Shown: positions 30,775 to 55,621 of the stretch, one piece after another | How the letters are laid out: every line of letters begins with the position of its first letter | Numbering within the stretch: position 1 is the stretch's first letter | NCBI GenBank assembly: GCA_031256435.1 | Contig: JAIRQO010000061.1 | Coordinates: 59,301-123,300, forward strand | Direction: 5' to 3' | Source of the DNA: Cellulomonadaceae bacterium | Lineage (GTDB): Bacteria; Actinomycetota; Actinomycetes; Actinomycetales; Cellulomonadaceae | Length of the DNA: 64,000 nucleotides | Program-made: the position numbers and the translations under genes | Notes under the pieces: generated by a model | Told to the model about the DNA's origin: nothing | Databases searched by the model: none | The model's input: only the letters and a program-made list of their open reading frames with translations

Positions 30775-30834
30775 GCCGGTATTCTAAAGGCGCTTGGCAG
30801 GTGTGATGGTGTCAAATCTGGTAGCGTCAAACCT

Positions 30835-33384: not shown

Positions 33385-33484
33385 AACACGGGTAGGGAGA
33401 ATGTGCCGGAGGGATCATCACCACTCTCCGACGTGACCCAGGCTCTCGCGCCGTTCTCCGCTGAATCCTGTTATTGTAAGGTAC

Positions 33485-36085: not shown

Positions 36086-36099
36086 GCTGGCTTCTTCCC

Positions 36100-39054
36100 A
36101 TGACAGATACCTGTACTTATTACACGGACAATAAGCGCTATTACCAAAATTTCTCTACACAGCATTATCCGCTGGAACGCGACCTCAAAACTGATGAATA
36201 CGCTGATGCAATAGTCCTTCCAATTATTGAGGCTCCAACGACTCTATCCCGTAGCCATGTGGGAGGCGTCCTGGATTCGGAAGGAAATTGGGTCGCTGGA
36301 CAACTGGTGAGAGGCGATGGAGATGTGTTTTCGTCAATTGACCAAGGTTACTCAGTGTCCAACCCAAAGGGAATACCCTATATAGGCGAAACAGTGATCT
36401 ATGCCGGAGGCTCTGATAAGGAACAGTTCGGCCACTACGTCACAGAGAGGCTTTCACGCCTATGGTGTTTCCTAAGTGATGAATCGCCAAAGAAAAGGAT
36501 CGTGTTCTCCGGAAACCCTGGTAGGACAATAAGCCCGACGCTTCTGGAACTGCTAAACTTGGTTGGCATTGGTCCTGATGATGTGTACTACATCACTGAG
36601 CCAACTCGTTTTTCGAGTATTATTGTGCCTGAACAGGCATTCTACACCTACGGCGGACCTTTCCACAGGGAATCAGCACTTTTGGTTTTCAACGAAATCG
36701 CGGAACGAGCCGAACCAACTGAAATTGAGAAAGTATATTTCTCTCGATCTGGAATCGTCAAACCATTCCAGGCAACCATTAACGAGTCGAAACTAGAGAA
36801 GTTCTTCAAAGAACAAGGTTATCATATTTTCCGTCCGGAACTGTTAACAATGCACCAGCAGATTTCGCTAATTGCTGGTGCACGTGAGTTCGCTTCAACA
36901 TTTGGAAGCATTTCACATCTGATTCCCGTTGCGCAGGCAGGAACCAAGGTTTCCTTGTTCTTGCGCGATGATGAACTCTATCCTTCCAATGCGGTTCAAT
37001 GGCTTTTTTGCGGGTTGCGAGAACTTCCGTGGTCGTTAGTAAATACGACGATGAAGTTGATTCCGGCAACAATGGAGGCCGGAGCCGTGATGTTCACCAA
37101 CACCAAGCAATGGCAACGCTTCACCGCTGAAGAATTTGGTGTCGATGAGGGGAGTGAAGCACCCGATTCTGACATTGCTGAATATATGCGGCAGTGGGCG
37201 AAATCAATCCCAGACACCCTTTATGCCGGCCTCGACAGTGAAACTGACGGCTACTGGCAGGAGACGGGAACGCTCACTGATCGTGCGACCAAGGTAAAAA
37301 TAGCCGACGGACGGTTGCGGGGAAGTCCCCGCATAGGATTTAACTCACTAGCCAAGCACGTCAGTCGGTCACTGCTCGGTGTCAATTTGTCTCAAGCAAC
37401 ACTCGATGCTCTGCGAGTGAGGGATGAACTGTCCTTACGGGGAGCCACGATTCATCTTCAATTCACTGCGACAACCTCAGAGAATAGTGAAGGCGGGCTG
37501 ACAATTCGCGGAGACACGATAGTTCCACCCGCTGTTTCCACCGAATTTACCCTGTCCAATGTGTCGTGTAGAATCAGCAATTCTTCCTCTCGTCCAATAA
37601 TCACGCTTCCAGTGACGATTGTAGATGAATTGCGTCGATGGCAACTTGTTATCCCAATGTCCCTACTCGAATCCATCCCGGACTCGGAAACTCTTAATCT
37701 AAATTTTGACTACGAGACGATTATTCATCAGATTAAGCGAACCCGCAGGGTGGGTTCAACTATCAAGACCTCTCCATTTGAGGGTAAGTCCCATTCGATA
37801 TCACCGTACACTAATGTCAATGGAAATCTGAGCGTTCGCGTTGATGGCCCGATAGTTCGATCTTCCGTCGTTGCAGACTCTGTGGTTTTCGATAAGGATG
37901 ATCTTGTTATCCGGGGTACTGGGGTACCTCCAGACTCGACATCGTCTGATGGGAACATCGCGCTTCGCCTGCATGGTCAAAATGGCGAAGGAGATCATTC
38001 AATCCCTGCGAAGATCGACAGCTCAACAGGGGCCTGGGAATGCCGAGTTTCGCTGGACATAGTCATTGGCGCAAAAGCCCGGACACTCGCGCTTTACTTG
38101 GACCTGGCGTACTCCGGTCAGACGTACAGCAAGCGCGTCATCTCTGGAATTAATGAACGGGTAACAGTCGAAAACGAATCCCGGATTGAGGCCTACGAAA
38201 ATCTCAATGGCAACCTCAGCCTCAACGTGGATGGACCGGGCTGGCACGTTCGACGTGCCTCGATCATCGCAACCACTGCCAAGCCTACCGACGCCTTACT
38301 CAGCATTAAAGGCATTGGCATACCTCAGGTATCACAGGCTGACGACTTGGCCATTACTGCACGATTTTGCGCTGATAATAATCTTGATCCCGTAACAGTG
38401 GCAGTCCACTCTGATTCATCCACTGGTACCTGGATGTGCGAATTGCCACTTAGTCTCCTGGACCTTAACCCAAGGCCTGTGAAGTTTGCGATGTACATTG
38501 ACCTAGACAGTGGAGGTTACAAGGCGGCACACAAGGTAAAGGCACCTTCAATCGCTCGAAGAATATCCGAATCCAAGACTCGCACCGAGGTTTACACCGA
38601 TATTGACGGAGCCTTAATCACTGAGATCGCTGGTCCCGGGTGGCAAATTCCCAAATCGGCCGTTTACGCTGAGAACATTGTGATTAATAGTGGCGCACTC
38701 ATGATTAGCGGGTCCATTGTTTCCAGTGATGCCGTTTCAATGTTAGACCAAGCAGTATTCTGCTTAGAACTGAACAACGTTACACAAGACATAATTAGCC
38801 CGATGACCTTGCTCTCTGGTGATGGAAAGTGGCTTACAGAGGTATCACTCGGGGCGTTTAGTGAGATTGCGAACTCCAGTTCTGTTAGAGCATGGCTGGT
38901 GACAACAGCAGCGGGTGACGAAATCAAGTTACCCGTGTTGTCAGGACTTGCGAGGCCGATTGATCTCGATGACAGATATCGGTTAGTCCGCAGACGAAGA
39001 ATCAGGGCGTTTCCGGACCCTGATGGAATCCTGTGCATGACAATCGAGCAATAG
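36100..39054 (+). CDS. GT61 (DUF563) glycosyltransferase with tandem C-terminal beta-sandwich repeats
   Basis: FGHYVTERLSRLW, KVYFSR, PELLTMHQQI, GSISH; three or four C-terminal modules ending in (Y)xNxNGNLS-like motifs. Confidence 0.8.
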   Translation: MTDTCTYYTDNKRYYQNFSTQHYPLERDLKTDEYADAIVLPIIEAPTTLSRSHVGGVLDSEGNWVAGQLVRGDGDVFSSIDQGYSVSNPKGIPYIGETVIYAGGSDKEQFGHYVTERLSRLWCFLSDESPKKRIVFSGNPGRTISPTLLELLNLVGIGPDDVYYITEPTRFSSIIVPEQAFYTYGGPFHRESALLVFNEIAERAEPTEIEKVYFSRSGIVKPFQATINESKLEKFFKEQGYHIFRPELLTMHQQISLIAGAREFASTFGSISHLIPVAQAGTKVSLFLRDDELYPSNAVQWLFCGLRELPWSLVNTTMKLIPATMEAGAVMFTNTKQWQRFTAEEFGVDEGSEAPDSDIAEYMRQWAKSIPDTLYAGLDSETDGYWQETGTLTDRATKVKIADGRLRGSPRIGFNSLAKHVSRSLLGVNLSQATLDALRVRDELSLRGATIHLQFTATTSENSEGGLTIRGDTIVPPAVSTEFTLSNVSCRISNSSSRPIITLPVTIVDELRRWQLVIPMSLLESIPDSETLNLNFDYETIIHQIKRTRRVGSTIKTSPFEGKSHSISPYTNVNGNLSVRVDGPIVRSSVVADSVVFDKDDLVIRGTGVPPDSTSSDGNIALRLHGQNGEGDHSIPAKIDSSTGAWECRVSLDIVIGAKARTLALYLDLAYSGQTYSKRVISGINERVTVENESRIEAYENLNGNLSLNVDGPGWHVRRASIIATTAKPTDALLSIKGIGIPQVSQADDLAITARFCADNNLDPVTVAVHSDSSTGTWMCELPLSLLDLNPRPVKFAMYIDLDSGGYKAAHKVKAPSIARRISESKTRTEVYTDIDGALITEIAGPGWQIPKSAVYAENIVINSGALMISGSIVSSDAVSMLDQAVFCLELNNVTQDIISPMTLLSGDGKWLTEVSLGAFSEIANSSSVRAWLVTTAAGDEIKLPVLSGLARPIDLDDRYRLVRRRRIRAFPDPDGILCMTIEQ

Positions 39055-39127
39055 TTACCAGTAATTTACTCTCCGAATACCTATCAACCGGCGAACACAT
39101 CACAATCCGTAACAACAGGGATCCAAA

Positions 39128-40609
39128 ATGAATTCTTACGACGTATCAATAATCATTCCAACATACAACGTATTACGCAAGACAATCGATGGCGAATTGG
39201 CCATTGCCATCGGACTCAATACGGTACTGAATCAAGTCTCGGATCGATTTACATTCGAGATCATTTTTGTCGATGATGTTTCAACGGATGACACAGTATC
39301 CTGGTTATCTTCATGGGCAGAATCAAATCAAAACGTTGCAGTCACAATCATTGAGAGGTCCACCAACTCCGGTTCTCCATCAATTCCAAGAAATGACGGG
39401 ATTGATGCAGCTCGCGGGAAGTGGATCGCATTTATGGACAATGATGATCAAATGGGTGGCCCTGGATCGCTCTGCGAACTTTATTCTTTCGCCGAAAATT
39501 GGGATTCGGATGTAATCATAGGAGAAGTCAGGAAGAAGGGCAAGGGAAATATTGCCCGTTCGCTCTTTGAAAAGGGAAACTTTGAACGAGTTGACTTCAA
39601 TATCATTAACCCTTTAGCAAACATCGGAGTCTGGTCACGGCTTTTCCGAAGGGAATTCATTGATCGAATTCATGCAAGATTCCCTGATGAAAACGTTACG
39701 CACGAGGATTGGTATTTCAACGCACAGATTTTTGCCAATACTGACAAGATTTCATTGATCACAAATCAGGTTTACTACTATTGGGTCGACACGGACGTTG
39801 CACACCTTTCATCAGATTTGAGTTGGGCATACCAACTACAATGTGAACAGAACATCAATTCCATAGATTTCTTCCGGACCTCGGAACACCCATCGAAATA
39901 TAGAAACGGCGCCGCGTTCATCTCACGTGTGATGGCTTCTGGAGTATTCAAACACACATACTCGGTTGACAACGATCGGTCGGCGTTCATGGTGCATGCG
40001 CAGATGCACGCGAAGTTTGTACGGCAGATGGAATCGATGAATTACATTGAGTATCTACCATATATGGCGAGAGACGATCAACGCCTCTTGAAGATCGTTC
40101 TTGACACTGATTTCACCAGGGCACGAGAGTTATTCCAGGCTCACCGGGCAACAAATAGGCCAGACCTATTTCTGCGACTTTCACCGCCCTGCATTACCAA
40201 GGATTCGTCTACTAACTTGCTTCGAACCAATGACTTGATCGATACCCTCCTGACTGGCCACGCGTTCGGAGAGATTATCGTTGATTTAAGCACGGAAGTA
40301 CTATCCGTAACGGTGGACTCGTTGAACTCCAAGGATGAGGTCTTGATCATCTCTCCGAGAAACTTGAACCGCTTCGCTGTATACCCATTTACTCCTGCAG
40401 GAGAGATCAAAATACCAACCAGTTCTATCTTAGATGTTTCAAAGGGTGGTGGAACACTTGATTTCTACATAGGACGCCAAAGCAGTTTTGGAATCGCCGC
40501 CAAAATGGTTCACGGTAGATATTCCGGAAATACGCAAGGATTCAAGGAAATGCCAAACTCGAAGTTTTATCCAAACTGGAAGGGTGGGCTTTCACTCAAT
40601 ATCAAATAG
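39128..40609 (+). CDS. GT2 glycosyltransferase (TarS-like)
   Basis: VSIIIPTYN, FVDDVSTD, NSGSPSIPRN, FMDNDD, HEDWYF. Confidence 0.88.
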   Translation: MNSYDVSIIIPTYNVLRKTIDGELAIAIGLNTVLNQVSDRFTFEIIFVDDVSTDDTVSWLSSWAESNQNVAVTIIERSTNSGSPSIPRNDGIDAARGKWIAFMDNDDQMGGPGSLCELYSFAENWDSDVIIGEVRKKGKGNIARSLFEKGNFERVDFNIINPLANIGVWSRLFRREFIDRIHARFPDENVTHEDWYFNAQIFANTDKISLITNQVYYYWVDTDVAHLSSDLSWAYQLQCEQNINSIDFFRTSEHPSKYRNGAAFISRVMASGVFKHTYSVDNDRSAFMVHAQMHAKFVRQMESMNYIEYLPYMARDDQRLLKIVLDTDFTRARELFQAHRATNRPDLFLRLSPPCITKDSSTNLLRTNDLIDTLLTGHAFGEIIVDLSTEVLSVTVDSLNSKDEVLIISPRNLNRFAVYPFTPAGEIKIPTSSILDVSKGGGTLDFYIGRQSSFGIAAKMVHGRYSGNTQGFKEMPNSKFYPNWKGGLSLNIK

Positions 40610-40631
40610 CCCACTGATAGACAGTTGCTTC

Positions 40632-41816
40632 CTATTCCATTAACTCGTGCTTGATGGTACCAAAATATGAAAGCGCATGCTCTATGCATACATCCATATT
40701 GTAATACCGGAACTCGGCCAAACGCCCACAGAGGTAGAGGTTTCGGTAGTTATCGGCAATCTTACGATACTGTGTGTACAATTCCTTCGAGTCCGAAGTC
40801 AGAACCGGATAGTAAGGGATTCGAGACTCTGCGTCAGGACTTTCAGGATCGTGAGCAACTGGCCACTCGGTCACTGTTGTTGTCCCTGTCACTGAGGCGT
40901 GCTCTTTCATTAACTCTCGATAATCCGTTGTACGGATATATCCGTCCGCTTGGGGATAAGAGATGATTTCGCACGGTAACGGATTCGGATTGTCGAAATG
41001 GCGATAAGTAAAACGGAGTGACCGATATGGCAGTAACCCCAGACGGTACCCGAATAACTCGTCGATGCATCCGGTGTAGATGAGACACTCTGTATTTTTC
41101 TTGTCCCATAGTACCTGATCATCATTGAACGAAATACGATCGGTTGCGTCAGTCTCCAATTCTATGGATATTCGCGGATGATCCAACATAGAATGGAATA
41201 GAGAAGTGAACCCATCCTTGGGTAGGTATTGGAAATCCTTGTTAAGATATCGCGTGTCATATCCCATCGCCATTGGGACTCGATCTAGCACTGAACGATC
41301 AATCAACTCTGGTGGAATACCCCACATCTTCGAAGTGTACGTGCGGTATGCCTTCTCAAATAGCAGATTGCCGTAATCGCGTATGTCCGATTCCTCGTTA
41401 TCAAGTAACTCAAGTATCGGTACGCGATCTCGTCCACGAAACTGTTCTCGAAATTTTCGATATAACTGTGCCGCTCGCTTTGGTCCAACAAATTGTCGAA
41501 CTGTAGTAAAGTTGAATGGCAGTTGCATATACTTACCGTCAATATAACTCAATAAATGACAATCAAATGGGAATAATTCCGAATACTGACCAAGAAATTC
41601 AATGACCCGATAGGCGTTAGTGTTAAGAATATGTGGTCCATACCGCTGCACTAGCACGCCGTTGTTGTCACGTGAATCAAACATATTGCCGCCAATATGC
41701 GGACGACGCTCCACAACAAGAACGTCACGCTGGCACTCCTCAGCGATTTTCCTCGCGAGAATAGATCCACTGAAACCGGATCCGACCACGATCACACGTT
41801 CAGACACAATATCCAC
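40632..41816 (-). CDS. glf: UDP-galactopyranose mutase
   Basis: VVGSGFSG, HIGGNMFD, YGPHI, YTG.ID, YRSLRF, GRLAEFRYYNMD. Confidence 0.93.
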   Translation of the reverse strand: MDIVSERVIVVGSGFSGSILARKIAEECQRDVLVVERRPHIGGNMFDSRDNNGVLVQRYGPHILNTNAYRVIEFLGQYSELFPFDCHLLSYIDGKYMQLPFNFTTVRQFVGPKRAAQLYRKFREQFRGRDRVPILELLDNEESDIRDYGNLLFEKAYRTYTSKMWGIPPELIDRSVLDRVPMAMGYDTRYLNKDFQYLPKDGFTSLFHSMLDHPRISIELETDATDRISFNDDQVLWDKKNTECLIYTGCIDELFGYRLGLLPYRSLRFTYRHFDNPNPLPCEIISYPQADGYIRTTDYRELMKEHASVTGTTTVTEWPVAHDPESPDAESRIPYYPVLTSDSKELYTQYRKIADNYRNLYLCGRLAEFRYYNMDVCIEHALSYFGTIKHELME

Positions 41817-42119
41817 CCTTCAACCGGTGCTTTGTGGTTACTTTGAACCACTTGATTTTCCTCCAAGTACTAGGCTCTTATGGTACTAGTCCGCCCTGCG
41901 AGACGTGCCTGCAAACCCGATCGACGACCGATGTGCGACTCAGAATCTATCAATCAATTCTAGCGGGGGGATATCTTCCGTCATGACGTTGTTTTCCCTA
42001 CAACTCTGGGAATCGCGTCTCAGAACGCAATATGGAGATTAGACAGTCGGTCGTCGGTTCGTTCGGCGGGCTTTACGCAATCCCGGGACACTGTCCAACA
42101 CATCTGCCAGACTTGGCTC

Positions 42120-42977
42120 ATGAGCAAAGAAGAGGATAAGGCACTTGTACTCGTCACGGGAGCCCAAGGATTTCTTGGCCAAGCCCTCGTCCCACGCCTA
42201 CTAGACGCAGGTGCAAACGTCATCGCTTGTGATTTCAGTGTGGACAAAGTTGATACGCGAGCCACCGCTCTTGCCGGAAACATTTTTGATCCCGATTCGA
42301 TCTCTCCAGATTCGGCAGGGAACCCCACGCACCTGGTACACCTCGCGTGGCAGGATGGCTTTGTCCTCAACTCAGACGCTCACATGCGGAATGTATCGGC
42401 GCACTATGGTTTCCTCATGCGGTTCATTAGTGGTGGCTGCACCAACGTATCTGTCATGGGAACCATGCATGAGGCAGGCTACATTGAAGGTGCTATCGAC
42501 GAAAACACCGTATGCGTTCCACTGAATGAGTACGGTGTTGCAAAGAACGCACTTAGGCAGTCGATGCTCCTAAGGACAACGTCCCTCGATGTTTGTTTCA
42601 AGTGGCTCCGCGCCTATTACATTGTGAGCAATACCGGAATTGGAGAGAACATCTTTGCCAAAATTATCCGTGCTGCCCGAGACGGCAAGACCACCTTCCC
42701 CTTCACCACCGGTAAGACGAAGTATGACTTCATCTCTATTGAGGACCTAGCCGACCAAATCACCGCGGCGGTTCTCCAGACGGAAGAGGCTGGCATCATC
42801 AACGTGTGTTCTGGCAACCCGGTGTCATTGGCTGATCGAATTGAGCAATTTATCACCGAGAACAACCTTGATATTTCTCTGGACTACGGAGCGTTCCCAG
42901 ATCGCCCCTTCGATTCACCCATTACCTATGGTGATGCCACCCGTATCCAGAAGATCATGGGAACCAACGCGACGTGA
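42120..42977 (+). CDS. NAD-dependent epimerase/dehydratase family; candidate dTDP-4-keto-sugar reductase
   Basis: VTGAQGFLG, HLAWQDGF, GTMHE, YGVAK, YDFISI. Confidence 0.85.
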   Translation: MSKEEDKALVLVTGAQGFLGQALVPRLLDAGANVIACDFSVDKVDTRATALAGNIFDPDSISPDSAGNPTHLVHLAWQDGFVLNSDAHMRNVSAHYGFLMRFISGGCTNVSVMGTMHEAGYIEGAIDENTVCVPLNEYGVAKNALRQSMLLRTTSLDVCFKWLRAYYIVSNTGIGENIFAKIIRAARDGKTTFPFTTGKTKYDFISIEDLADQITAAVLQTEEAGIINVCSGNPVSLADRIEQFITENNLDISLDYGAFPDRPFDSPITYGDATRIQKIMGTNAT

Positions 42978-43158
42978 TCGATGACAGCACCCAGATCAGC
43001 CCCACCACTTACACACAATTCCTGACAGACCCGGATGCCTGCTACCCCCTTCAGAAACCCACTACCAACCTATTTGACGACCGCTACCCACTCGGCCTGA
43101 TCGGCAGTTGTCGTCTTCATAGGAACCCATTGCAAGCCGATGGCATAGGTTGCGTCTT

Positions 43159-44724
43159 ATGGTCTTGATCCACCTCCCGGTCACCGGTATCACGTCAGAT
43201 GTGCTGGTAGACGCTCTTCTCCGTAAACAGTACTTCCCCAACATCAAGAAGACCTCTGGCGAGGAACTTCCTCCGTACTTCTCGTCTGAGAGCCTGACCG
43301 ATGCGGCTGCTGCCGATCTGCTAAATCTGGAAAGTCGCGACCGTGGTGTCGTGCGATTCGGCACCAGGAAATTCGACGGTCTTGTTCGACCGATGGGCTT
43401 GCCGCATCCAGTGGCACATGTTCGGCTGGTCAACCACTTAGGGAAGTACTGGACACATCTCGATGCTCGGCTTGGAAGTGAACAGAGCAAGATTGCTCCT
43501 CGACACCACGATGACGGTCGCGTACTGACGATGGACTACGACGACCAACTCACTGAGAGTAACGCCCAGACCCAGGCTGCCACCGGTCGACGTTTCGTTG
43601 TGAAGGCGGACATCAGTAACTGCTTCGGCTCTATCTACACCCACGCTGTCGATTGGGCTCTACGAGGTCGGGACGCCGCACGCCGAGGACGTCGGGACAA
43701 CTCCTGGGAGCACAAACTCGATCTTCAACTCCAGCGTTGCAACGGAGGGGAGACGAAGGGCATCAACATCGGTCCGGCAGTCTCGAACATCGTCGCCGAG
43801 TTCATCCTCCAGGAGGTTGACCTAAAGTTGGCTGGTATTCTCGCGACAGCCTTTCCCCGTAGCGGACTCCAATTCACTCGCAACATCGACGACTACACGT
43901 TGTCCTGCGATACGAACGATCAAGCCGAACTCTTCCTTACGGCGCTCGGGCAAGAACTTGCTCACTTCCGCTTGTCCCTCAATGGTCGGAAGACTTCAGT
44001 TCAGCCCACAGTTGGCGGGATCGGCGAACGATGGATCGCAGATATCCACCTCCGACTGCCGGACCCAACGGAGGCCGAGAAAGCAGTGCGGTTCGTACAG
44101 TGGCTCGGGTATCATGCCGATGACGTCCCGGGCAAGTCGGTGGCCCGTTACGGCGCCAAGACGTTAGTTAAGGAACGCCTCAAGACTGGTCAAGCCGATG
44201 AATCGGACCTAATACTCGCAGACGAGTTACTGCGCCTGGCGTTCCACAGACCAGAAACGCTCTGTTTTGCCGTCCAACACCTCGAATGGTCAGGGTCCAA
44301 GTTTGACGGCAATAACAGGGTGCGCCTAGGGCATTCGCTTCACCAACTACTCGAACAGGCAGCCCAGCGTCGAGAGACCGACACTGCACTTTGGGCGATG
44401 CGCGGTCTTGAATCACTTAGCCGCACTGAAGAACTCAACTCGAAGTCTACGAGGGATGCCCTCATCGCACTGGAAGACGACCTCGTCTGGCTGGTCCTGG
44501 CACACCTCCACCGGGACGGCATGAACGAGGTTGCCACTGCCGCCGAATTGCTGAACGCAGGAAACAACGGAGACGTACCCGAAGACATCGTCGAGGAGCA
44601 CTGGCTCGCCCGTTACGAACTGCATCGAACTGAGCGGCTTCAGGAAGTCAACCTCTCGAAGTTCGAGAAGCAGTGGTTCAAGAAGGCCATCAACCACTCC
44701 GTGTCATTCAGCATCCTCACCTAG
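43159..44724 (+). CDS. Antiviral reverse transcriptase, DRT4 (UG15)-like
   Basis: LLRKQYFP..ELPPYFSS N-terminus, RPMGLPHP, KADISNCFGSIYTHAVDWA, GINIGPAVSNIVAE, RNIDDY catalytic motif, helical C-terminal domain ending HWLARYEL..VSF. The ORF track starts at TTG 43150. Confidence 0.85.
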   Translation: MVLIHLPVTGITSDVLVDALLRKQYFPNIKKTSGEELPPYFSSESLTDAAAADLLNLESRDRGVVRFGTRKFDGLVRPMGLPHPVAHVRLVNHLGKYWTHLDARLGSEQSKIAPRHHDDGRVLTMDYDDQLTESNAQTQAATGRRFVVKADISNCFGSIYTHAVDWALRGRDAARRGRRDNSWEHKLDLQLQRCNGGETKGINIGPAVSNIVAEFILQEVDLKLAGILATAFPRSGLQFTRNIDDYTLSCDTNDQAELFLTALGQELAHFRLSLNGRKTSVQPTVGGIGERWIADIHLRLPDPTEAEKAVRFVQWLGYHADDVPGKSVARYGAKTLVKERLKTGQADESDLILADELLRLAFHRPETLCFAVQHLEWSGSKFDGNNRVRLGHSLHQLLEQAAQRRETDTALWAMRGLESLSRTEELNSKSTRDALIALEDDLVWLVLAHLHRDGMNEVATAAELLNAGNNGDVPEDIVEEHWLARYELHRTERLQEVNLSKFEKQWFKKAINHSVSFSILT

Positions 44725-45204
44725 CCGCATTCCGTCCCACCGAGTACCCAATGAATGTCGACGCACTCAAGCCCCGTGATATGTTCTGTTCCAATACCCG
44801 GCGCGAACGGCAATACCTTTGTTCCAGCGTACGTGTGGAACAAGGAGTTGCAGTGGCAGTCGCTGCGTAGGTACATCACCTGCCTGGTCGCCAGCATCCA
44901 TTGCAACGCCCGGAACGCCACCCACTTCCTGAGAGCCATCAATATCCAGCAAACGAAGGGCTCCCTATGCACTCTCTCGGCACGTAGCATCCTTCGACGG
45001 GCAAAACAGCGCCTTATGACGCTACAACGGCTTCTAGACTCCCTCATCCGTTATTGGAGACCCCTGGTATGGACTCCCTCACTCAGCGAGTGCTGCCGTC
45101 AGTGGAGAACAAGCACAAAGATAGGCAGTAGCGCTGCACGGAATCCTCCCAGAAATGGTAATTTTCCATGCTGACCGCAGAACTCACTACAATAGTTACC
45201 ACAG

Positions 45205-45780
45205 TTACCACGTGGGCTGGTTGTCCTCGATTGTGAAGTTCACATCTGAATCCTTGAGAAGCGGCGCATCCATGTCCTTCTTTGAGATGATCGGATCGTC
45301 GATACCCCAATCAAAGCCAATGTCTGGGTCATTGAATGCGATCGCTCGGTCATCAGGACCGTTATACGGCTCATCAACCTTGTAAAGAACCTCGCAGTGA
45401 TCCGTGAGAGTCATAAACCCGTGAGAGAAACCAGACGGAATCCAAATTTGCTTGTGGTTATCTTCAGTCAACTCCACGGCAACCCACTTGGTGTAGGTTG
45501 GTGATCCTTTGCGTAGATCCACAGCAACGTCCAGAATTGCACCGCGCACGCAGCGTACTAACTTGATTTGGGGGGTGGGGTTGTTCTGGAAGTGGTGGGC
45601 CCGGATTGTGCCCTTCTTAATGGAGTAACTATGGTTATCCTGGACAAATACTGTGTTGATGCCCAGTTTGGCCTGAGTACGGGCCGAATAGGTCTCCGAG
45701 TAATATCCGCGATAATCCTCAAAGTAGTCCGGTTCAAGGATCTTGACGTCAGGAATCTCTAAATCTGTCATCTTCAACAT
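45205..45780 (-). CDS. rmlC: dTDP-4-dehydrorhamnose 3,5-epimerase
   Basis: [50 protein letters not shown]. Confidence 0.93.
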
Positions 45781-45944
45781 GGTTCCATTGTGCGGCAGCA
45801 CGCCCCAATTCATGGGTTCGCGCACCGCCCGCGCCATGCGTGCAATGCACTCTACCGAATCGCCCATTCCGCTGGCTTGAACAGCAGCGCGCCAGTGACG
45901 TGTTGCCCTGGCTCCCTCCGAGTTGTGATGCCACAATGGTAGCC

Positions 45945-46844
45945 ATGCGTGGCATTATTCTGGCCGGTGGCTCTGGTACCCGGCTTCACCCCATCACCAT
46001 GGGCGTGAGCAAGCAACTCGTTCCGGTGTATGACAAACCCATGATCTATTACCCGCTCAGCACATTGATGCTGGCAGGCATCCAGGACATCTTGATCATC
46101 ACCACCCCCCACGATGCTCCGCAATTTGAGCGGCTACTCGGTGACGGTAGCCAGTTCGGCATCAACCTGACCTTCACCGTCCAGGCAGAGCCAAACGGAC
46201 TCGCCCAAGCCTTCGTTCTGGGCGCTGATCACATCGGCAATGACAATGTTTCCCTGGTACTGGGTGACAACATTTTCTGGGGTCCCGGTATGGGCAACCG
46301 TCTCACCCGCTGGCGAGATGTTGACGGTGGAGCCGTGTTTGCCTACCAAGTGGCGGATCCGCGCGAATACGGCGTGGTGGACTTTGATGATCAAGGCATC
46401 GCCTTATCTATCGAGGAAAAGCCCCAGCAACCGAAGTCCAACTACGCCGTCCCCGGACTCTATTTCTATGAGAACTCCGTGGTGGACTTTGTGAAAACCA
46501 TGAAGCCCTCAGCCCGTGGTGAATATGAGATCACAGATGTGAACCGTCACTACCTTGAGGAGGGACGCCTCCACGTTGAGGTTTTCCCACGCGGTGTTGC
46601 CTGGTTAGACACTGGATCCTTTGAATCCCTCCACGAGGCCAGTTCCTTTGTCCGCACCATCGAAAACCGACAAGGAATGAAGGTGGGTGTTCCGGAAGAA
46701 GTAGCCTGGCGCAAGGGATTCATTTCCGATGAGGATCTCCTGGCCCGTGGTGAGTTACTCCGCAAATCTGGCTATGGAGAGTACCTCATCAGGTTGCTAG
46801 ATCTTCCCCATGATCTCCCCGCCTACCGGCCCCCACAGGCATGA
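45945..46844 (+). CDS. rmlA: Glucose-1-phosphate thymidylyltransferase
   Basis: [33 protein letters not shown]. Confidence 0.96.
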
Positions 46845-46883
46845 CATCTGAACGCGCCACTGCCACCTGAGAAAGTCGAATCC

Positions 46884-48320
46884 ATGCCTCAACCATCCCT
46901 GGCCATCCAGATAGCCCGCTCGTGGTGCACTATTGACGGTGCCGAACACGCCCTCACGGATCTCCACTCATGGGTAAGTGAACGCAATGCGAACACCCAC
47001 GTAGATATCAAGCCCGGGGTTTTCTCCGATGACGGCAACTGGTTTGTGGACCCTGCCACCGGAACCATTCGCAACCGGCAAGGTTCGTTCTTCACGGTGG
47101 CTGGGCTTCGCCAAACGGCACCCGATGGTTCGGTCCACGAGCAGCCGGTGATCCTCCAGCCGGAAATTGGCTTCCTGGGATTCCTGGCTATGGAACGCCG
47201 TGGGGTACTCCACTTCCTTGTTCAGGCCAAGATTGAACCGGGGAACATCAACAAGGTTCAGCTGAGCCCCACCATTCAGGCCACCAAGTCCAACTTCACC
47301 CAGGCCCATGGCGGCAAACGCCCCATGTTCCTGGAGTATTTCCTTGACGTAGACCCTGATGCCATCATGGTAGATCAAATCCAATCCGAGCAATCATCCC
47401 GGTTCTTCAAGAAGCGCAATCGCAATATCATCGTCGTACTCGATGAAGAACCAGAGGTTACCGACCAGTTCCGCTGGATGACGTTGGGCCAAATCAAGGC
47501 GCTCATGCACTATGACAACCTAGTCAACATGGACACACGCACGGTCCTGAGCTGTATCCCCACCTCCATGATGGCATGCAGTGATGATGAGTTTGCGGAG
47601 ATCATTTCCCTGTTCAATGATGAGCCGCTGGCCCGCTCCGTTTTCCACGCGCCGGACGTGAATGCTGCACCTCCCATGTTCCACCAGATGAACAACTTCA
47701 AAATGTTTGATGCACCGGTTTCGGAGATCATCAGGCTCGACGAACTGGAGCGCTGGGACTGGGTGAACAATGAGTTAGTGTGCCTTGACGGTGGAGATTT
47801 CACGGTGGGCGCGTTTGACATTGCCATTGAAGGCCGTGAAGTGGTGGAGTGGACTCAGCCGCTGTTCAAAGCCAAGGGCATTGCCACGTTTGGGCTCATC
47901 ACCACCGAAGATACTGATGGTGTTCGGCGATTCCTTGTTCGCATTGCGCCGGAGCCCGGCTGCTTTGATGACGTGGAGTTTGGGCCGTCCGTGCAACTAG
48001 AGCCCACGGCACCCCCCGAGGGCGACGACGATGTATCGCGTTTCATGTTCGAGCAACTCGCGGCACATCCAGACCGTGTGAGCCATGACGTTCTTCTCTC
48101 CGAAGAAGGCGGACGCTTCTATCACGAGCAAAACCGCAACATTGTGGTTGACGTAGACCGTAGCGCACTGACGGAGTTCCTTGGCGCTGATCCACGTTTG
48201 ATGCTGGTGGATTATTGGACGCTGAACACCCTTAACCAAGTGAATAACGTACTCAACATCCAACTCCGCAATGTGCTTTCATTGCTGCCCGCCGTGACTC
48301 CTGAGGATGATGCTCAATGA
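46884..48320 (+). CDS. NDP-hexose 2,3-dehydratase (EryBVI/TylX3-like)
   Basis: QPEIGFLG, QAKIEPGN, QLSPTIQATKSN, QSEQSSRFFKKRNRN, SEEGGRFYHEQNRN. Confidence 0.92.
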   Translation: MPQPSLAIQIARSWCTIDGAEHALTDLHSWVSERNANTHVDIKPGVFSDDGNWFVDPATGTIRNRQGSFFTVAGLRQTAPDGSVHEQPVILQPEIGFLGFLAMERRGVLHFLVQAKIEPGNINKVQLSPTIQATKSNFTQAHGGKRPMFLEYFLDVDPDAIMVDQIQSEQSSRFFKKRNRNIIVVLDEEPEVTDQFRWMTLGQIKALMHYDNLVNMDTRTVLSCIPTSMMACSDDEFAEIISLFNDEPLARSVFHAPDVNAAPPMFHQMNNFKMFDAPVSEIIRLDELERWDWVNNELVCLDGGDFTVGAFDIAIEGREVVEWTQPLFKAKGIATFGLITTEDTDGVRRFLVRIAPEPGCFDDVEFGPSVQLEPTAPPEGDDDVSRFMFEQLAAHPDRVSHDVLLSEEGGRFYHEQNRNIVVDVDRSALTEFLGADPRLMLVDYWTLNTLNQVNNVLNIQLRNVLSLLPAVTPEDDAQ

Positions 48321-49336
48321 CCACTCGGATTGCCGTTCTGTGCCCCTCTGAGATTGCGATTCGGCGGTTCATGCCGGCCATCACGCTCTCGGAAGACTTT
48401 GAGTACGTGGGCGTGGGCATGGCCTCACGCGACGAATGGACTGGAGACCCTGCCGCCTACGATGCTGTTCACGAAGGTGAGATAGCCAAGACGGCTGCTT
48501 TTGTAGAAGATTACGGAGGCCGGGTGTTTGAGGGCTACGAGACCCTGATCAACGCTGACGATGTTGACGCTGTGTACCTGCCGTTGCCTCCGGCTCTGCA
48601 TCACGGATGGGCTACCAAGGTGCTCAACGCCGGTAAGCACGCCCTGGTGGAAAAGCCGTTCACCACTTCCGTGGAGGATACCGAGGATCTCCTCGCACTG
48701 GCCAAGGACAAGGGCCTTGCTGTGCATGAGAACTATATGTTTGCCTTCCACTCGCAAATCCAGTTTGTGAAGGACACTATGGAATCTGGATGCTTGGGAG
48801 AGATGCGGCTCATCCGGTTGTCCTTTGGTTTCCCATTCCGTGGCGCCAACGATTTCCGGTACAACAAGGCCCTAGGCGGCGGAGCGTTGCTGGACTGCGG
48901 CGGCTATCCCGTCAAGTTGGCTACCTTGCTGCTGGGTCCCACGGCGCGTGTCACGGATGCCAACCTCCAGTTGGGCCGAGACCTTGATGTTGACCTCTAC
49001 GGTTCGGGCACCCTGGTGAATGATGACGGCCTCACTGTTCAGTTAGCCTTTGGAATGGACAACGCGTACCGCTGTGACATTGACCTCTGGGGCTCCACCG
49101 GATCGATGAGTTCTGGCCGCATCCTCACCGCACCCGTGGGCTACGATCCAGTGTTCACCTTCACCACTCCTGAAGGCGTTGTCGACGAGACGCTCCCGGA
49201 GGACGATTCGTTCCTGGGATCGATCAACGCCTTTGCCAAGTCCATCAAGGATCCGTCAGCGGCGGCGAAAGCGATGGATGCCATAGCGCACCAAGCAACG
49301 TTGGTGTCAGTGTTCCAAGCAGTGGCGCCGCGCTAG
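48317..49336 (+). CDS. Gfo/Idh/MocA oxidoreductase; probable NDP-hexose 3-ketoreductase
   Basis: AIRRFMPA, YLPLPPALH, HALVEKP, ENYMF, GGGALLDCGGYP; ATGA-coupled to the 2,3-dehydratase. Confidence 0.88.
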   Translation: MTTRIAVLCPSEIAIRRFMPAITLSEDFEYVGVGMASRDEWTGDPAAYDAVHEGEIAKTAAFVEDYGGRVFEGYETLINADDVDAVYLPLPPALHHGWATKVLNAGKHALVEKPFTTSVEDTEDLLALAKDKGLAVHENYMFAFHSQIQFVKDTMESGCLGEMRLIRLSFGFPFRGANDFRYNKALGGGALLDCGGYPVKLATLLLGPTARVTDANLQLGRDLDVDLYGSGTLVNDDGLTVQLAFGMDNAYRCDIDLWGSTGSMSSGRILTAPVGYDPVFTFTTPEGVVDETLPEDDSFLGSINAFAKSIKDPSAAAKAMDAIAHQATLVSVFQAVAPR

Positions 49337-49350: not shown

Positions 49351-50937
49351 ATGGAATCTGCTGCGGCGCGTGATTGGCGTTCCCGGTGGCGCTCTCGTTG
49401 GAGCTCAAACTGGGGGGTTGCTGCCATGCTGGCGGGGGTGCTTGCCGTGAGTGGCCTGGTGGCGGCACCGCCTGCTGGCGCAAGCCCTACCGCGCTGGTT
49501 GGTGGTGTAGCCGTCCGTGCCGCAAAGAACAGTTTTGAGGGCGGCAGTGTCACCATCTCCGGACCTGCCAAAGTAGGCCAGAAACTCAAAGCCAGGGTCA
49601 CGGGCGTCTTTCCGAAGCCGAGCGCGGTGACGTATCAGTGGTACCGCAGCGGGAAACGCATCAAGGGTGCCACCTCGACGAGCTACCGCCTCAGTGCGGC
49701 TGATGCTGGCCGTGTCATCCGGGTGAAAGCCACCTTGACGAAGGATGGGTATCGCGAGCGCACCTTGGAGGAAACGGCCCGCGTGGCCGAAGGACGTTTC
49801 ACTGTGGGAAAGCTTTCCTATTCCGGGCGCCGCCAAGTGGGGTCAACACTCACGGTACACCGCCCCTCCGTGTCACCGCGTCCCACGCGGATCCAGTATC
49901 AATGGGTGCGAGACGGCAACAACATCCGCGGGGCTACGAGTAAGCGGTACACCCTCACGGCTCAGGACATGAACACCAAGGTGTGGGTGAGGGCAACGGT
50001 GTCACGCTCTGGATATCAGGATAAGGCTCGCCAATCCTGGAAGGGTGGTGTGATCGATCCACTGGAGTTCCGCGGAGGATCCGCCACCGTAGTGAACAAC
50101 CCCATGGTGGGACTGTACGTGAAGGCGCAGCCAGCACAGTTTGATCCTGCCCCTAGCAAGTACTCGTACCAATGGCTTCGTGGAGGACGAGCCATTGATG
50201 GCGCAACGAACAAGACGTACAGGCTCGCAGCCGATGATAAAGGGAGACGAATAACCGTCAGAGTGCGTGCCGAGCGCGCTGGGTATCGCGCTTCCTCGGT
50301 GACATCAGCGCCGGTGACTGTGCAGTCCACCTACTCGCTAGACGTCCTGGCTTCCATTCCCATTAAACCCAGGGACACCGGTGGTACCTATAGCAGGTCC
50401 TCGTTCGGCGATTCCATGTGGTGGGACCTTGACGGAACGGGATGTACCACCCGGCAGAAAATCCTGCACCGTGACCTACAGAACGTTGTCCTCCGCTCCA
50501 ACGGGTGTTCTGTGGAATCAGGGGTACTGTTTGATCCCTATTCCGGTGTGACCATTCACCACACCGCTGGCGCCAAGACGGCTTCTGGCGCCAACGTGGT
50601 GCAGATTGACCACGTGGTCCCCGTTTACCAGGCGTGGATGACGGGGGCACGAACGTGGACCCAGCAGAAACGCGAACGGTTCAATCAAGATCCGGCAAAC
50701 CTTCGCGCAACGTCTGCTGCCATGAACGAAGCCAAGGGAGGCCAGCGTGCCGACCAGTGGATGCCGCCCCGAAAAAGTGCTCACTGTGAGTATGTGGGCA
50801 TTCAGACTGCGGTGAAGGAGGAGTACGGGTTGTGGATGCCTCAGGCCGAACACGAGTTCATCGCCCGCATTCTGGCTGGCTGCCCAGCCGATACTGTCAA
50901 GATGATTCAGAAGCCGCTGCCGGGTGCGCCGTATTAA
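49351..50937 (+). CDS. Secreted protein: three Ig-like (YQW) repeats + HNH nuclease (DUF1524-like)
   Basis: Signal region (APPAGA), YQWYRSGKRIKGAT-type repeats, QIDHVVP..AW..GA..NL..N..K HNH motifs. Confidence 0.88.
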   Translation: MESAAARDWRSRWRSRWSSNWGVAAMLAGVLAVSGLVAAPPAGASPTALVGGVAVRAAKNSFEGGSVTISGPAKVGQKLKARVTGVFPKPSAVTYQWYRSGKRIKGATSTSYRLSAADAGRVIRVKATLTKDGYRERTLEETARVAEGRFTVGKLSYSGRRQVGSTLTVHRPSVSPRPTRIQYQWVRDGNNIRGATSKRYTLTAQDMNTKVWVRATVSRSGYQDKARQSWKGGVIDPLEFRGGSATVVNNPMVGLYVKAQPAQFDPAPSKYSYQWLRGGRAIDGATNKTYRLAADDKGRRITVRVRAERAGYRASSVTSAPVTVQSTYSLDVLASIPIKPRDTGGTYSRSSFGDSMWWDLDGTGCTTRQKILHRDLQNVVLRSNGCSVESGVLFDPYSGVTIHHTAGAKTASGANVVQIDHVVPVYQAWMTGARTWTQQKRERFNQDPANLRATSAAMNEAKGGQRADQWMPPRKSAHCEYVGIQTAVKEEYGLWMPQAEHEFIARILAGCPADTVKMIQKPLPGAPY

Positions 50938-51247: not shown

Positions 51248-52939
51248 CTATTGCTTGGGGAACTTGAGGCCAGCATGATACTTGACACCGGGGCCTCGCG
51301 ATCTTTCAAACTCCTTCTTGATGATCTCACGTTTCTGTAGATCGGCCAAGATATTGCGAGCTGCATTCATCTCCACATCAAACATCCGACGCACTGTTTG
51401 GTTTGTGATGAACTGGTACTCCCGAATATGTTGAATGACCTTGTTATCAATGCTGTCATTTGTTCGGCGATGGTACCGAACCGCAACTCCTAGACCAGTG
51501 AGCGCCAGCCCCGATAGACCATAGTTGGGAAAGGCTGCGTGCGATGTTCTGCGCGAGGACTCTATCAATCCTTCTGAAGCCATTCTGTTGAGGGTCCGCT
51601 GTGCGTTTGCAGGTGGGCGTTGAATCACGGGGGCAACATCGCCTGCATTAACCTGCCGGACTTCACACAACCTATCCAGAATAAGCAACACCTCAATATC
51701 CGATGCAAACTCGTCGGCAAGGTCAGATTGGACATACCGAACGTAAGCGTCACTCCCTTCCCCGCCAACAATGTCAACCGTGACCATCGATTCGCTATCG
51801 ATGAACGTTGGCGGCTCCTTACCATTGAGCAGCAGGACACGATATGCCCGGTCCACCCCTTGACCAGATCGCTCAGCCAAGCCTAGGCCTGTGATCACTT
51901 CCAGCAACCTCGTATTCCGCGGCGTTGAGGGATAACTGAGAATATTGGCAGCGGTCACACCGAACACCAGACTTCCCGGACTTGTGATCCGAAGATTCGC
52001 AGGTGATTGCTCAATGTCGACTGATCCGTGGCGCTCGTAATCCCTATGGACGAAGGCATTCACAACAAGTTCACGGACTGCTCCTGATGGGTAATCTTCA
52101 AGAACTAATTGCTGCCCGCCTGACACATTCAAAGGTCGCGATGTTTTTCTGGCATCCAACAGCCCGAGGAGGTGCTCAACTGCATCCAAGAGGGGTCGCT
52201 GCTCACGCACCCGTAATGACGATTCGGACCCTTGTCTGGGCCGGTACTGGTAGGAGTATCCATGATTTGGAACAACTCGATTGATGTCATCAACATCTCC
52301 CACAAGGAGGAGTCCTGCTTTAGTCAACTTACCGGTGTCCGTAGATAACCGTAGGTCCCGCAGTACTGCCTCGTCGTCCTGTGCAGCCAACTCCCCCCGG
52401 CCTGCGCCTCGCAACAACCGGCGAAGCCGGGATAGATCCTCTCCGGAATACCGTGTGACCTCGGTAACCTCTGCAGACCAATCGTAGAGTCCGCGAGCAG
52501 CCAACGCTTGCTTCTGTGCTTCCGGTGGAAACGGCTCGCACGAGCTCCCAACACGCACTGTTGCGGTACCTGCGGCATTGGAGTAGATCACCGCACCCTT
52601 GGGAACAGTCACCTCAAGTAGCCGTTTCCCATTCACGAAATGCGTTGCCACAGGCACGGATAACGATGGCCGTGTCCGATCAAAAATCCCCTTGATCGCA
52701 ACTTCCTCCGTCAACCGGTCGCTCACTCCGAGAATCGCTTCCTCGCCCTTGAGTCTGTCGTGGACACCAACAATGAGCATGCCACCGGTAGCGTTTGCAA
52801 GGCAAACAACAACATCTGCCATAGACTCCAAGGTGCGTTTCAGGGACTCGCCTTCCTGTTTGCACTCCAATGATGTCGATTCAATCTCGTCAGCACACGC
52901 TCCTCCTTGGATTGCCTCCAGCGCCCCCATGAACTCCAT
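51248..52939 (-). CDS. Schlafen/AlbA_2 domain + HATPase_c_4 + winged-HTH protein
   Basis: ESTSLECK..VVCLANATGG.L.VGV.D, RELVVNAFVHRDY, ITSPG, PRNTRL..GL.ERSGQG, C-terminal wHTH. Confidence 0.88.
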   Translation of the reverse strand: MEFMGALEAIQGGACADEIESTSLECKQEGESLKRTLESMADVVVCLANATGGMLIVGVHDRLKGEEAILGVSDRLTEEVAIKGIFDRTRPSLSVPVATHFVNGKRLLEVTVPKGAVIYSNAAGTATVRVGSSCEPFPPEAQKQALAARGLYDWSAEVTEVTRYSGEDLSRLRRLLRGAGRGELAAQDDEAVLRDLRLSTDTGKLTKAGLLLVGDVDDINRVVPNHGYSYQYRPRQGSESSLRVREQRPLLDAVEHLLGLLDARKTSRPLNVSGGQQLVLEDYPSGAVRELVVNAFVHRDYERHGSVDIEQSPANLRITSPGSLVFGVTAANILSYPSTPRNTRLLEVITGLGLAERSGQGVDRAYRVLLLNGKEPPTFIDSESMVTVDIVGGEGSDAYVRYVQSDLADEFASDIEVLLILDRLCEVRQVNAGDVAPVIQRPPANAQRTLNRMASEGLIESSRRTSHAAFPNYGLSGLALTGLGVAVRYHRRTNDSIDNKVIQHIREYQFITNQTVRRMFDVEMNAARNILADLQKREIIKKEFERSRGPGVKYHAGLKFPKQ

Positions 52940-53129
52940 GGATCCACCTTAGTTTGATAGAGCGTGAAATTGCAACACTTCATCAAACTCAACTCAAATT
53001 GCGGCCATGTCGGCAACCAACAGAGGTACTCAGCCACAATCTGTTAACCGCTGTAGGCGTTGCACCTATTGCGATTGGGTCAAACCCTTTGCCACCGCAC
53101 CATTCGAGGTGGTGATGTTGCAAGGAGTA

Positions 53130-53226
53130 TCGTCGAGGATGGGGATTCGACAGACGTTCACTTCGAGCCTGGCTCAAGCGCCCGCCGAGTTTGACGAGGC
53201 GTAAGGATGTCACGCTTCATCAAACA
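53130..53226 (+). repeat. ~96-bp direct repeat, copy 2
   Basis: See 51123-51218. Confidence 0.9.
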
Positions 53227-53366
53227 CAAGTTAAACTATCAATACTCTCCCGACCGATCGCTTGGGAAACGTGGGCCAGTAGATACTGACATTTTTCCAT
53301 GCCAGTCTATGGCAGTTCAGCGCGTCAAGTATTGAGACGTGAGCCTCGTCCAGGAATGATCAGGTA

Positions 53367-54605: not shown

Positions 54606-55221
54606 TGGTTACAAGGCACCCGTTGGTGTCTCGATCGACGATGATGTGGATAGTGATGCGTTGAAGGTGGCGAAAGCCGCCAGTCCCACCGGCGTCTACA
54701 CGTGGGATGGACCGCCGACGATCGAACTGGTCTCCCAGACCATTACGTGGCGTGGAGCCACGTGGTTACACCACATTCTTACCATGCAGGGCGGGTTGCC
54801 GGGGGTTGTGGTGATTGCCCGGCATCCTGACGGCATCATCGTCGAACGGCATTACCGTCCGGCAATAGATGCGTTGGGGTGGGAATTCCCCAGGGGATGT
54901 GGTGATCCAGAAGATTTCTGTGATGTCACCGAAGCTGAAGGGGCACTGGTCGCGGCGCGGCGCGAGTTACAGGAGGAAACGGGATGGGTGCTGGAGAACG
55001 CGGAGGTAGTTGGGACGTTCCACCCCGACTCCGGCATTGAAAATCTCACGATGTATGTGGTTGCGGGCGACGTTGCGGGCCGAGACGAGTCAATACTCGA
55101 CGAGATGGAGAAAACCGACCTGTTCACCTTTTCGACTGATGAGATTGGCTCGATGATCACCCGGGGCGAGATGCGGGACGGCATGACCCTAGCCGCCTGG
55201 GCGCTCTACCAGGGGCGGTAG
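54586..55221 (+). CDS. NUDIX hydrolase (ADP-ribose pyrophosphatase-like)
   Basis: HYRPA..WEFPRG, RRELQEETG Nudix box, RDGMTLAAW tail. Confidence 0.88.
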   Translation: MNTQRVDGYKAPVGVSIDDDVDSDALKVAKAASPTGVYTWDGPPTIELVSQTITWRGATWLHHILTMQGGLPGVVVIARHPDGIIVERHYRPAIDALGWEFPRGCGDPEDFCDVTEAEGALVAARRELQEETGWVLENAEVVGTFHPDSGIENLTMYVVAGDVAGRDESILDEMEKTDLFTFSTDEIGSMITRGEMRDGMTLAAWALYQGR

Positions 55222-55621
55222 CCCAGGGTGGGTGAGTGTGGTGGGCTCGCTGTTGCGTTTTCGCTCTTCTTCCCTGACACATTCGCACCGGAATAGAAAA
55301 GTGAGAACTACCGCCTCGATACCTACGTACAACGAGACATTGGACACAATTCGGTGCCGCGTGTGCCATATCATACACTTGTCCCAATTGAGGAAATTTG
55401 GAGAATGGAAGATTGTTACCATGCCACCGCTGATCGGGATGATCACCGAGAGATGCGATCATGGAGGCAACACCCGATTCACATTTGATGATGTTCCTCA
55501 AAGGCTTTCACCATGGCGTTAACGCGCCTGTCAAGGACCCAATCTGCGGTAACAGGTGCGGTGCAGCACTAGCGCGGCGCGCAGTGATCAGTACCATTTG
55601 GTTAGTTAGGAGGCTCTCACA

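Follow-up and report, generated by a model that had tools for sequence, protein, structure and literature searches.

A putative dTDP-2,6-dideoxy-L-hexose pathway at the edge of a teichoic-acid-type gene cluster in a termite-gut actinobacterium

We analyzed a 64,000-nucleotide stretch (the window) of contig JAIRQO010000061.1 from a Cellulomonadaceae bacterium, an uncultured actinobacterium whose genome was recovered from a termite gut metagenome (2.50-Mb assembly in 88 contigs, 93% complete, with a guanine-plus-cytosine (GC) content of 61.4%). At the edge of the teichoic-acid-type wall-polymer gene cluster of this bacterium, the window carries rmlA, rmlB and rmlC, the genes of a nucleoside diphosphate (NDP)-hexose 2,3-dehydratase and a coupled GFO-family 3-ketoreductase, and the gene of a short-chain dehydrogenase/reductase (SDR) that is a candidate 4-ketoreductase. 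A preliminary description of the window had listed these six genes, and all six were found present and intact. We consider it probable that together they encode every step from glucose-1-phosphate to a deoxythymidine diphosphate (dTDP)-2,6-dideoxy-L-hexose for an envelope glycopolymer, with a module transferred from Bacillota having been joined to native rmlA and rmlB and to a Tll-like SDR. The enzyme families are known and soundly annotated, in a host and setting that are uncommon, and the system is not of a new kind; as judged from sequence comparison, its specific twists are the inter-phylum transfer and the replaced terminal reductase.

In the proposed pathway, RmlA and RmlB would supply dTDP-4-keto-6-deoxy-D-glucose, from which the EvaA-type dehydratase would remove the 2-hydroxyl to leave a 3,4-diketo intermediate. 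The KijD10-type reductase would then reduce C-3, where such enzymes set an equatorial hydroxyl, the RmlC-type enzyme would epimerize C-5 and probably C-3 as well, and the Tll-like SDR would reduce C-4. Double epimerization combined with Tll-type stereochemistry, as we infer it, would give dTDP-2,6-dideoxy-L-lyxo-hexose (2-deoxy-L-fucose), which we tentatively propose as the product. Epimerization at C-5 only, or another facial selectivity of the reductase, would lead to L-boivinose, L-olivose or L-digitoxose. If the dehydratase and the reductase were bypassed, dTDP-6-deoxy-L-talose would be formed, and both sugars may be made. To our knowledge, 2-deoxy-L-fucose is known only from anthracycline-type antibiotics.

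Enzymes of the predicted pathway

The genes of the window were taken from an open reading frame (ORF) listing together with Pfam and NCBIfam scans (Table 1). The dehydratase, of which the whole assembly holds a single copy, contains two PF03559 (Hexose_dehydrat) domains (E value of 5e-115 and 382 bits in total; two domain matches of 235 and 151 bits in the genome search) and aligns with the EvaA structure 4j7g with an E value of 8e-87. Mutating E139 and E190 of pocket A abolishes the activity of EvaA (PMC8987622), and the equivalents of both residues are kept in the window protein (AKIEPGN for AKMEPGN of EvaA, and IQSEQSS for LQAEQGS). It is predicted to convert dTDP-4-keto-6-deoxyglucose into a 3,4-diketo-2,6-dideoxy compound. 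The reductase matched the KijD10 structure 3rbv with an E value of 1e-60, compared with only 2e-24 for the next GFO structure. Its catalytic K102 (of EKP) and Y186 are kept (VEKPF for AEKPL, and GGYPV for GVYPI of KijD10), the position of Tyr186 having been located via the Y186F mutant chain 3rc7. Reductases of the KijD10 type yield an equatorial C-3 hydroxyl (PMC11167396). The dehydratase gene starts 40 nt after rmlA, and the reductase ATG overlaps the dehydratase stop as ATGA at 48317-48320, an arrangement predictive of translational coupling. The assignment of the pair to the EryBVI/TylX3 and SpnN/KijD10 types, as well as the dTDP-2,6-dideoxyhexose chemistry that had been predicted from it in the preliminary description, is supported by membership in these families, by the conserved catalytic residues, by the gene coupling and by the comparative context.

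The product of rmlA matched TIGR01207 at 470 bits, over the cut-off, and is 75-78% identical to the copies in 11 same-genus genomes. RmlB aligned with 1kep with an E value of 5e-151 and is 76% identical to the product of a same-genus gene. By these identities, rmlA and rmlB are predicted to be native to the genus. In the window, rmlB is parted from the rmlA/GFO operon by a defence-gene island (51248-61534); the two rml genes are approximately 6 kb apart in one same-genus genome (L108).

RmlC gave E values of 3e-65 for PF00908 and 4e-52 for structure 3ryk, compared with only 4e-27 for NovW. The alignment with 3ryk contains RAHHFQ...K, LYKVDE and SKKD and thereby the complete His/Lys/Tyr/Asp set, which we take, following the RmlC literature, to be catalytic. 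The protein is only 32-34% identical to same-genus RmlC. Its three closest homologues (77, 70 and 69% identity), from gut metagenome contigs, are all encoded directly downstream of a dehydratase-GFO pair, and so is the RmlC of Pseudoflavonifractor (70% identical). The window RmlC shares only 38-40% identity with the RmlC proteins encoded beside homologues of the Tll-like SDR. By its affinities, the window rmlC is therefore of the type linked to dehydratase cassettes, which argues for an epimerase that acts on a 2-deoxy intermediate and for an L-sugar as the product.

The SDR encoded at 42120 belongs to PF01370 (Epimerase family; E value of 5e-21) and carries the GxxGxxG (TGAQGFLG) and YxxxK (YGVAK) motifs; an NCBIfam scan of this protein gave no equivalog match. 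It belongs to a large family and is 53-59% identical to proteins of Bifidobacterium and Clostridia. Some of its homologues are named dTDP-6-deoxy-L-talose 4-dehydrogenase, by Joint Genome Institute (JGI) annotation only, and the homologue in Bifidobacterium merycicum adjoins rmlB-rmlCD-rmlA, RgpF and an ATP-binding cassette (ABC) exporter. We read the protein as a Tll-like 4-ketoreductase candidate for L-lyxo-4-hexuloses, which refines the earlier description of it as a candidate 4-ketoreductase. Because of the label carried by its family, dTDP-6-deoxy-L-talose is a possible co-product or alternative product. In the dTDP-6-deoxy-L-talose pathway that serves surface polysaccharides of Bifidobacterium and Aggregatibacter (RmlA, RmlB, RmlC and Tll), the first three enzymes are shared with the window, and the SDR is 53-55% identical to the Bifidobacterium proteins. 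However, the rmlA operon of the window has an added 2,3-dehydratase and 3-ketoreductase, RmlD is absent, and the likeness to Tll is one of label and context.

We also considered this SDR as an orthologue of the SDR of approximately 305 aa found in Bacillota dehydratase cassettes and rejected it, given that the identity was 20-26% and, in the best case, extended over only 76 residues. Among themselves, the cassette SDRs of three loci (L056, L120 and L121) share 50-55% identity. Since the cassette SDR is missing from the genome (see below), the window pathway would be a hybrid that ends in a Tll-like enzyme.

The same six-step logic is found in the dTDP-L-digitoxose pathway of kijanimicin (KijD5, KijD4, KijB1, KijD10, KijD11 and KijC2) and the dTDP-L-olivose pathway of oleandomycin (OleS, OleE, OleV, OleW, OleL and OleU), which have in common with the window a thymidylyltransferase, a 4,6-dehydratase, a Nudix-fold 2,3-dehydratase, a GFO 3-ketoreductase, an RmlC-fold epimerase and an SDR 4-ketoreductase. 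In contrast to these systems, the window genome is without an aglycone pathway or a GT1 enzyme, and the genes lie in a wall-polymer locus. Moreover, the window epimerase is a canonical Firmicutes-type RmlC, and the 4-ketoreductase is Tll-like and not of the OleU/EryBIV/KijC2 kind.

Relatives and origin of the module

The 2,3-dehydratase was found in none of 12 same-genus genomes. Among 200 further genomes from the family, only 4 encode it, in copies that are 29-34% identical to that of the window; the best relatives anywhere reach only 56% identity. Among species-representative genomes, its relatives come almost entirely from gut and rumen Bacillota, with a few from Bacteroidales, Synergistaceae, Pelosinus, Desulfosporosinus and Ureibacillus. 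In a quick maximum-likelihood tree with Shimodaira-Hasegawa-like approximate likelihood ratio test (SH-aLRT) support, the window dehydratase was nested in a Bacillota clade and remote from the actinobacterial copies found within the family of its host. We additionally surveyed the phylum in a sample of 400 genomes. Genomes of 7-9 Mb from one genus in the class of the window bacterium, most likely antibiotic producers, matched the dehydratase at 37-52% identity, mostly over part of its length. A cassette-type copy (48-51% identical; dehydratase, GFO, rmlA and rmlB) was present only in two small genomes of another class. One small actinobacterial genome other than that of the window bacterium has a TagF-like gene 8 kb from its cassette.

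A KijD10-like GFO gene adjoins the dehydratase gene in 76 of 80 related loci, many of which also hold rmlC, Glf, rmlA and rmlB. The locus of Oscillibacter ruminantium GH1 reads ABC ATPase, SDR, GT9-like, GT2, dehydratase, GFO, GT2, RmlC, SDR, Glf, GtrA, RmlA and RmlB. In a Pfam census of 127 neighboring genes in 10 diverse loci, we counted GT2 (10), GT4 (8), Wzx (5 and 3), Wzy (3) and Glf (3), as well as acyltransferases and nucleotide-sugar enzymes; ketosynthase and condensation domains were absent from the 25 commonest families. The preliminary description had called the setting an unusual surface chemistry. It now appears less unusual, given that the enzyme pair is common in surface-glycan loci of gut Bacillota and that digitoxose is known from a bacterial surface glycan (see below).

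Compared with the gut Bacillota cassettes, of which Oscillibacter ruminantium GH1, Pseudoflavonifractor sp. 524-17 and Longicatena caecimuris DSM 29481 provide examples, the window proteins show identities of 46-56% for the dehydratase, 41-55% for the GFO reductase, up to 77% for RmlC and 57-62% for Glf. The dehydratase-GFO adjacency and the polysaccharide-locus setting are common to both. However, the window host is an actinobacterium with 61% GC, its rmlC precedes rmlA in divergent orientation, and its rmlB is 13 kb away; a Tll-like SDR replaces the SDR of approximately 305 aa, and the neighbors are of the TagF type and not Wzx/Wzy or GtrA. The GC content of the sugar genes is 0.49-0.58 (0.614 for the genome). 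On this comparative evidence, the dehydratase, the reductase and rmlC appear foreign to the genus and closest to the conserved dehydratase/3-ketoreductase/RmlC/SDR cassette of gut Bacillota surface-polysaccharide loci. We propose that these three genes arrived by horizontal transfer from the surface-glycan cassette pool of Bacillota and would have been combined with the native genes rmlA and rmlB and with a Tll-like reductase that had a separate origin. The window would thus be a case of the module moving from one phylum to another and accommodating a swap of its last enzyme.

Several of the related loci are of interest in their own right. In L120 (992-4823), a lone, minimal four-gene cassette (dehydratase, GFO, RmlC and SDR) stands by purine biosynthesis genes, from which the module is seen to move as a unit. 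In L121 (4116-13101), the genes for dehydratase, GFO, RmlC, SDR, HAD, RmlA and RmlB are immediately preceded by those for a UbiA prenyltransferase, GtrA and GT2, which suggests polyprenyl-phosphate-linked sugar addition outside the cytoplasm. A variant on two human gut metagenome contigs (L118 and L119) consists of dehydratase, GFO, RmlC, RmlA and RmlB, preceded by a DegT aminotransferase, a FabH-like ketoacyl synthase III (KAS III), two small ORFs of carrier-protein size, a ketoreductase and an AMP ligase, with GtrA and an LtaS-like protein of the sulfatase family coming after; this composition suggests an N-acylated amino-deoxysugar. The L118 dehydratase is split into pieces of 71 and 388 aa.

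Destination of the sugar and competing explanations

The wall-polymer cluster named in the preliminary description is real. It encodes a TagG/TagH-like ABC exporter (PF01061 and PF00005), four TagF-type glycerophosphotransferases (PF04464 in each), two of which are fused to GT4, a cytidylyltransferase-GFO fusion (PF01467), GT4 enzymes, a pyruvyl transferase and an Ig-GDPD protein, and GT2 and Glf genes follow in the adjoining block (36000-42000) together with a GT61-like gene. The GC content of that block is 0.45-0.49, compared with 0.614 for the genome, which suggests that it was separately acquired; its Glf is 57-62% identical to the Glf of Bacillota dehydratase cassettes. The sugar genes abut both this block and the TagF/TagGH cluster, whose exporter is the only export system that we saw in the window. 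In the simplest reading, the sugar would decorate the polymer built by TagF, TagGH and the glycosyltransferases, or else a galactofuranose (Galf)-containing polymer exported by the same ABC system.

The statement that the window holds no rmlD, polyketide synthase, nonribosomal peptide synthetase (NRPS) or GT1 gene can be extended to the 2.50-Mb assembly, within reach of the searches that we ran. A search for RmlD across the assembly matched only rmlB and one further SDR on another contig. Throughout the assembly, no GT1 of the EryCIII or macrolide type (PF06722) scored above the cut-off, no NRPS condensation domain (PF00668) was found, and no ketosynthase (PF00109) was found, not even that of a fatty-acid synthase; either the unassembled part of the genome contains the fatty-acid synthase or a loose first-pass filter missed the domain. 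The lack of GT1, condensation domain and ketosynthase makes a natural-product destination unlikely, within the limits of the 7% of sequence that is missing. The envelope use suggested in the preliminary description is supported by this lack and by the homologous cassettes in GT2/GT4/Wzx/Wzy/ABC polysaccharide loci, whereas attachment of the sugar to the TagF polymer is purely conjectural, and so is the masking of phage receptors.

In our literature search, nothing relevant was found on 2,6-dideoxyhexoses in teichoic acids, wall polysaccharides or O-antigens tied to a 2,3-dehydratase, and the only surface precedent was the digitoxose of Tannerella. Strong acid hydrolysis, which is usual in sugar composition analysis, destroys 2-deoxyglycosides; therefore, analyses of wall polymers may have overlooked them. 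A 2022 review names 2,3-dehydratases from antibiotic pathways only (PMC8987622). The S-layer protein O-glycan of Tannerella forsythia contains digitoxose as a chemically established surface 2,6-dideoxyhexose (PMC6120980). However, T. forsythia is a Gram-negative member of Bacteroidota, the acceptor is a protein glycan and not a wall polymer, and the text of that paper is without mention of a dehydratase.

We speculate further that acid-labile 2,6-dideoxy-L-hexoses are widespread and overlooked in Gram-positive wall glycopolymers, that here a Bacillota module with a Tll-type reductase puts 2-deoxy-L-fucose on a teichoic-acid-type polymer, and that such swaps are driven by phage pressure, of which the defence genes amid the sugar genes are suggestive; taken as a whole, this proposal is conceivable but doubtful. 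The same enzyme pair occurs in many gut-bacterial surface-polysaccharide loci and here in an actinobacterial locus of the teichoic-acid type, and the cassette is unstudied in gut Firmicutes. If present in wall polymers, these sugars would be a new class of surface epitope and a possible phage receptor in gut commensals, and the cassettes would be a source of deoxysugar enzymes from outside antibiotic producers.

Several points weigh against the dideoxysugar pathway as we propose it. The pathway is predicted from genes, the host is uncultured, and approximately 7% of the genome is unassembled. A cassette-type SDR of approximately 305 aa was sought in the genome with the L056, L120 and L121 proteins as queries, and only rmlB matched, at 22-24% identity; the use of a 2-deoxy substrate by the Tll-like enzyme is putative. 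The window dehydratase sits on a long branch in the tree (1.21, compared with a median of 0.19). The GT2 and GT61-like genes of the window have no counterparts in the Bacillota cassettes, and no glycosyltransferase could be tied to the sugar. Additionally, the reverse transcriptase (RT) gene and the defence island interrupt the locus, and co-regulation with the TagF genes is not evident. RmlA, RmlB, RmlC and the Tll-like SDR would by themselves be a complete dTDP-6-deoxy-L-talose route, so that the dehydratase branch may be dispensable. One might suppose that only dTDP-6-deoxy-L-talose is supplied to the wall polymer and that the dehydratase-reductase pair is a silent or inactive transferred remnant whose cognate 4-ketoreductase was lost; the absence of the cassette SDR, the long terminal branch and the talose 4-dehydrogenase annotation of the SDR family, whose members typically stand beside rmlABC(D) without a 2,3-dehydratase, would all suit this explanation. 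However, both ORFs are of full length with intact catalytic residues, the coupled pair lies directly downstream of the sole rmlA, and rmlC is of the dehydratase-GFO subtype and not the Tll-adjacent one (38-40% identical), so that we find a talose-only locus quite unlikely.

A 2,6-dideoxy sugar might also be made for an acceptor other than the TagF-type polymer, such as a glycolipid, a separate wall polysaccharide that contains Galf or a protein O-glycan like that of T. forsythia. The frequent company of the Bacillota cassettes with Wzx/Wzy, ABC or GtrA/GT2/UbiA polyprenyl-phosphate systems, and their rare company with TagF, is consistent with this, as are the digitoxose of a protein O-glycan and the look of the low-GC GT61-like/GT2/Glf block as a separate module. 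However, TagGH is the sole transporter in the cluster, no second export or polymerization system (Wzx, Wzy or GT-C) was seen beside the sugar genes in the window, and the TagF-like gene 8 kb from the cassette in another small actinobacterial genome favors the TagF-type polymer; we regard a different acceptor as unlikely, but as a prospect to be taken seriously. The classical role of the enzyme pair is to serve a glycosylated secondary metabolite, here one encoded elsewhere, and all biochemically characterized 2,3-dehydratases do come from antibiotic pathways (PMC8987622), with 7% of the genome missing. This role is nevertheless very unlikely, given an assembly free of condensation domains, ketosynthases and EryCIII-type GT1, a dehydratase that clusters with enzymes of Bacillota polysaccharide loci, and an identity of only 37-52%, mostly over part of the protein, to the likely producers with 7-9 Mb genomes. 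It is hardly credible at all that the two enzymes serve the defence island around them, for instance through a modified nucleotide sugar that acts against phages. The flanking Drt4-like RT, Schlafen-like, NUDIX, TOTE and Abi_2 genes and the secreted, nuclease-like Ig-GmrSD_C protein encoded in the same apparent operon invite the idea, but the homologous pairs of 80 other genomes are found within polysaccharide loci, and the partners rmlA, rmlC, rmlB and Glf are standard envelope genes.

Layout of the locus and neighboring genes

Table 1. Sugar genes and neighboring features of the window
Feature	Coordinates	Strand	Basis or comment
Extended SDR, 4-ketoreductase candidate	42120-42977	+	PF01370, motifs
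Drt4-like reverse transcriptase, outside the pathway	43150-44724	+	NF041749, PF00078
rmlC	45205-45837	-	PF00908; divergent from rmlA
rmlA	45936-46844	+	TIGR01207; start as gene-called
NDP-hexose 2,3-dehydratase (EvaA/OleV/KijB1 type)	46884-48320	+	two PF03559 domains
GFO-family 3-ketoreductase (KijD10/OleW/SpnN type)	48317-49336	+	PF01408 and PF22725
Ig/GmrSD_C protein	49351-50937		
rmlB	62008-63003	+	1kep match; thymidine kinase gene next
Teichoic-acid-type wall-polymer cluster	17306-36085		Pfam matches
GT61-like, low-GC block	36100-39054	+	
GT2, low-GC block	39128-40609	+	
UDP-galactopyranose mutase Glf, low-GC block	40632-41816	-	

In this mosaic locus, defence genes are interspersed among foreign sugar genes of lower GC content. 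The span 42120-49336, which had been presented as the sugar pathway, does hold sugar genes, but it also holds the unrelated Drt4-like RT gene and a family-less stretch of approximately 480 bp. The RT (321 bits for NF041749, with a cut-off of 450; PF00078) stands alone between the SDR gene and rmlC. The approximately 480 bp after it contain a 139-codon ORF (44755-45174) without a family match and with an odd, Cys/Arg/Trp-rich composition. This ORF is probably non-coding, and the stretch may hold an RNA partner. A scan for promoters and terminators was uninformative, with fewer sites than in shuffled sequence, and no 16S gene was found in the assembly.

The island at 51248-61534 encodes a Schlafen/AlbA_2-HATPase protein, a 412-aa protein of unknown function whose gene overlaps a NUDIX gene, a DUF7946 protein, an AEP-TOTE primase-helicase, a BetR helix-turn-helix protein and Abi_2. 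In the wall-polymer cluster, a cytidylyltransferase (PF01467) is fused with a GFO/IDH/MocA domain at 20790-22136, which is unusual for the step that supplies CDP-alditol. Immediately downstream of the 3-ketoreductase gene, and starting 15 nt past its stop, lies the gene of a 528-aa Ig-repeat protein with a GmrSD_C (HNH-type nuclease) domain and a weak ZirU-family match. This gene appears to belong to the rmlA operon, and its product may be a wall-associated nuclease.

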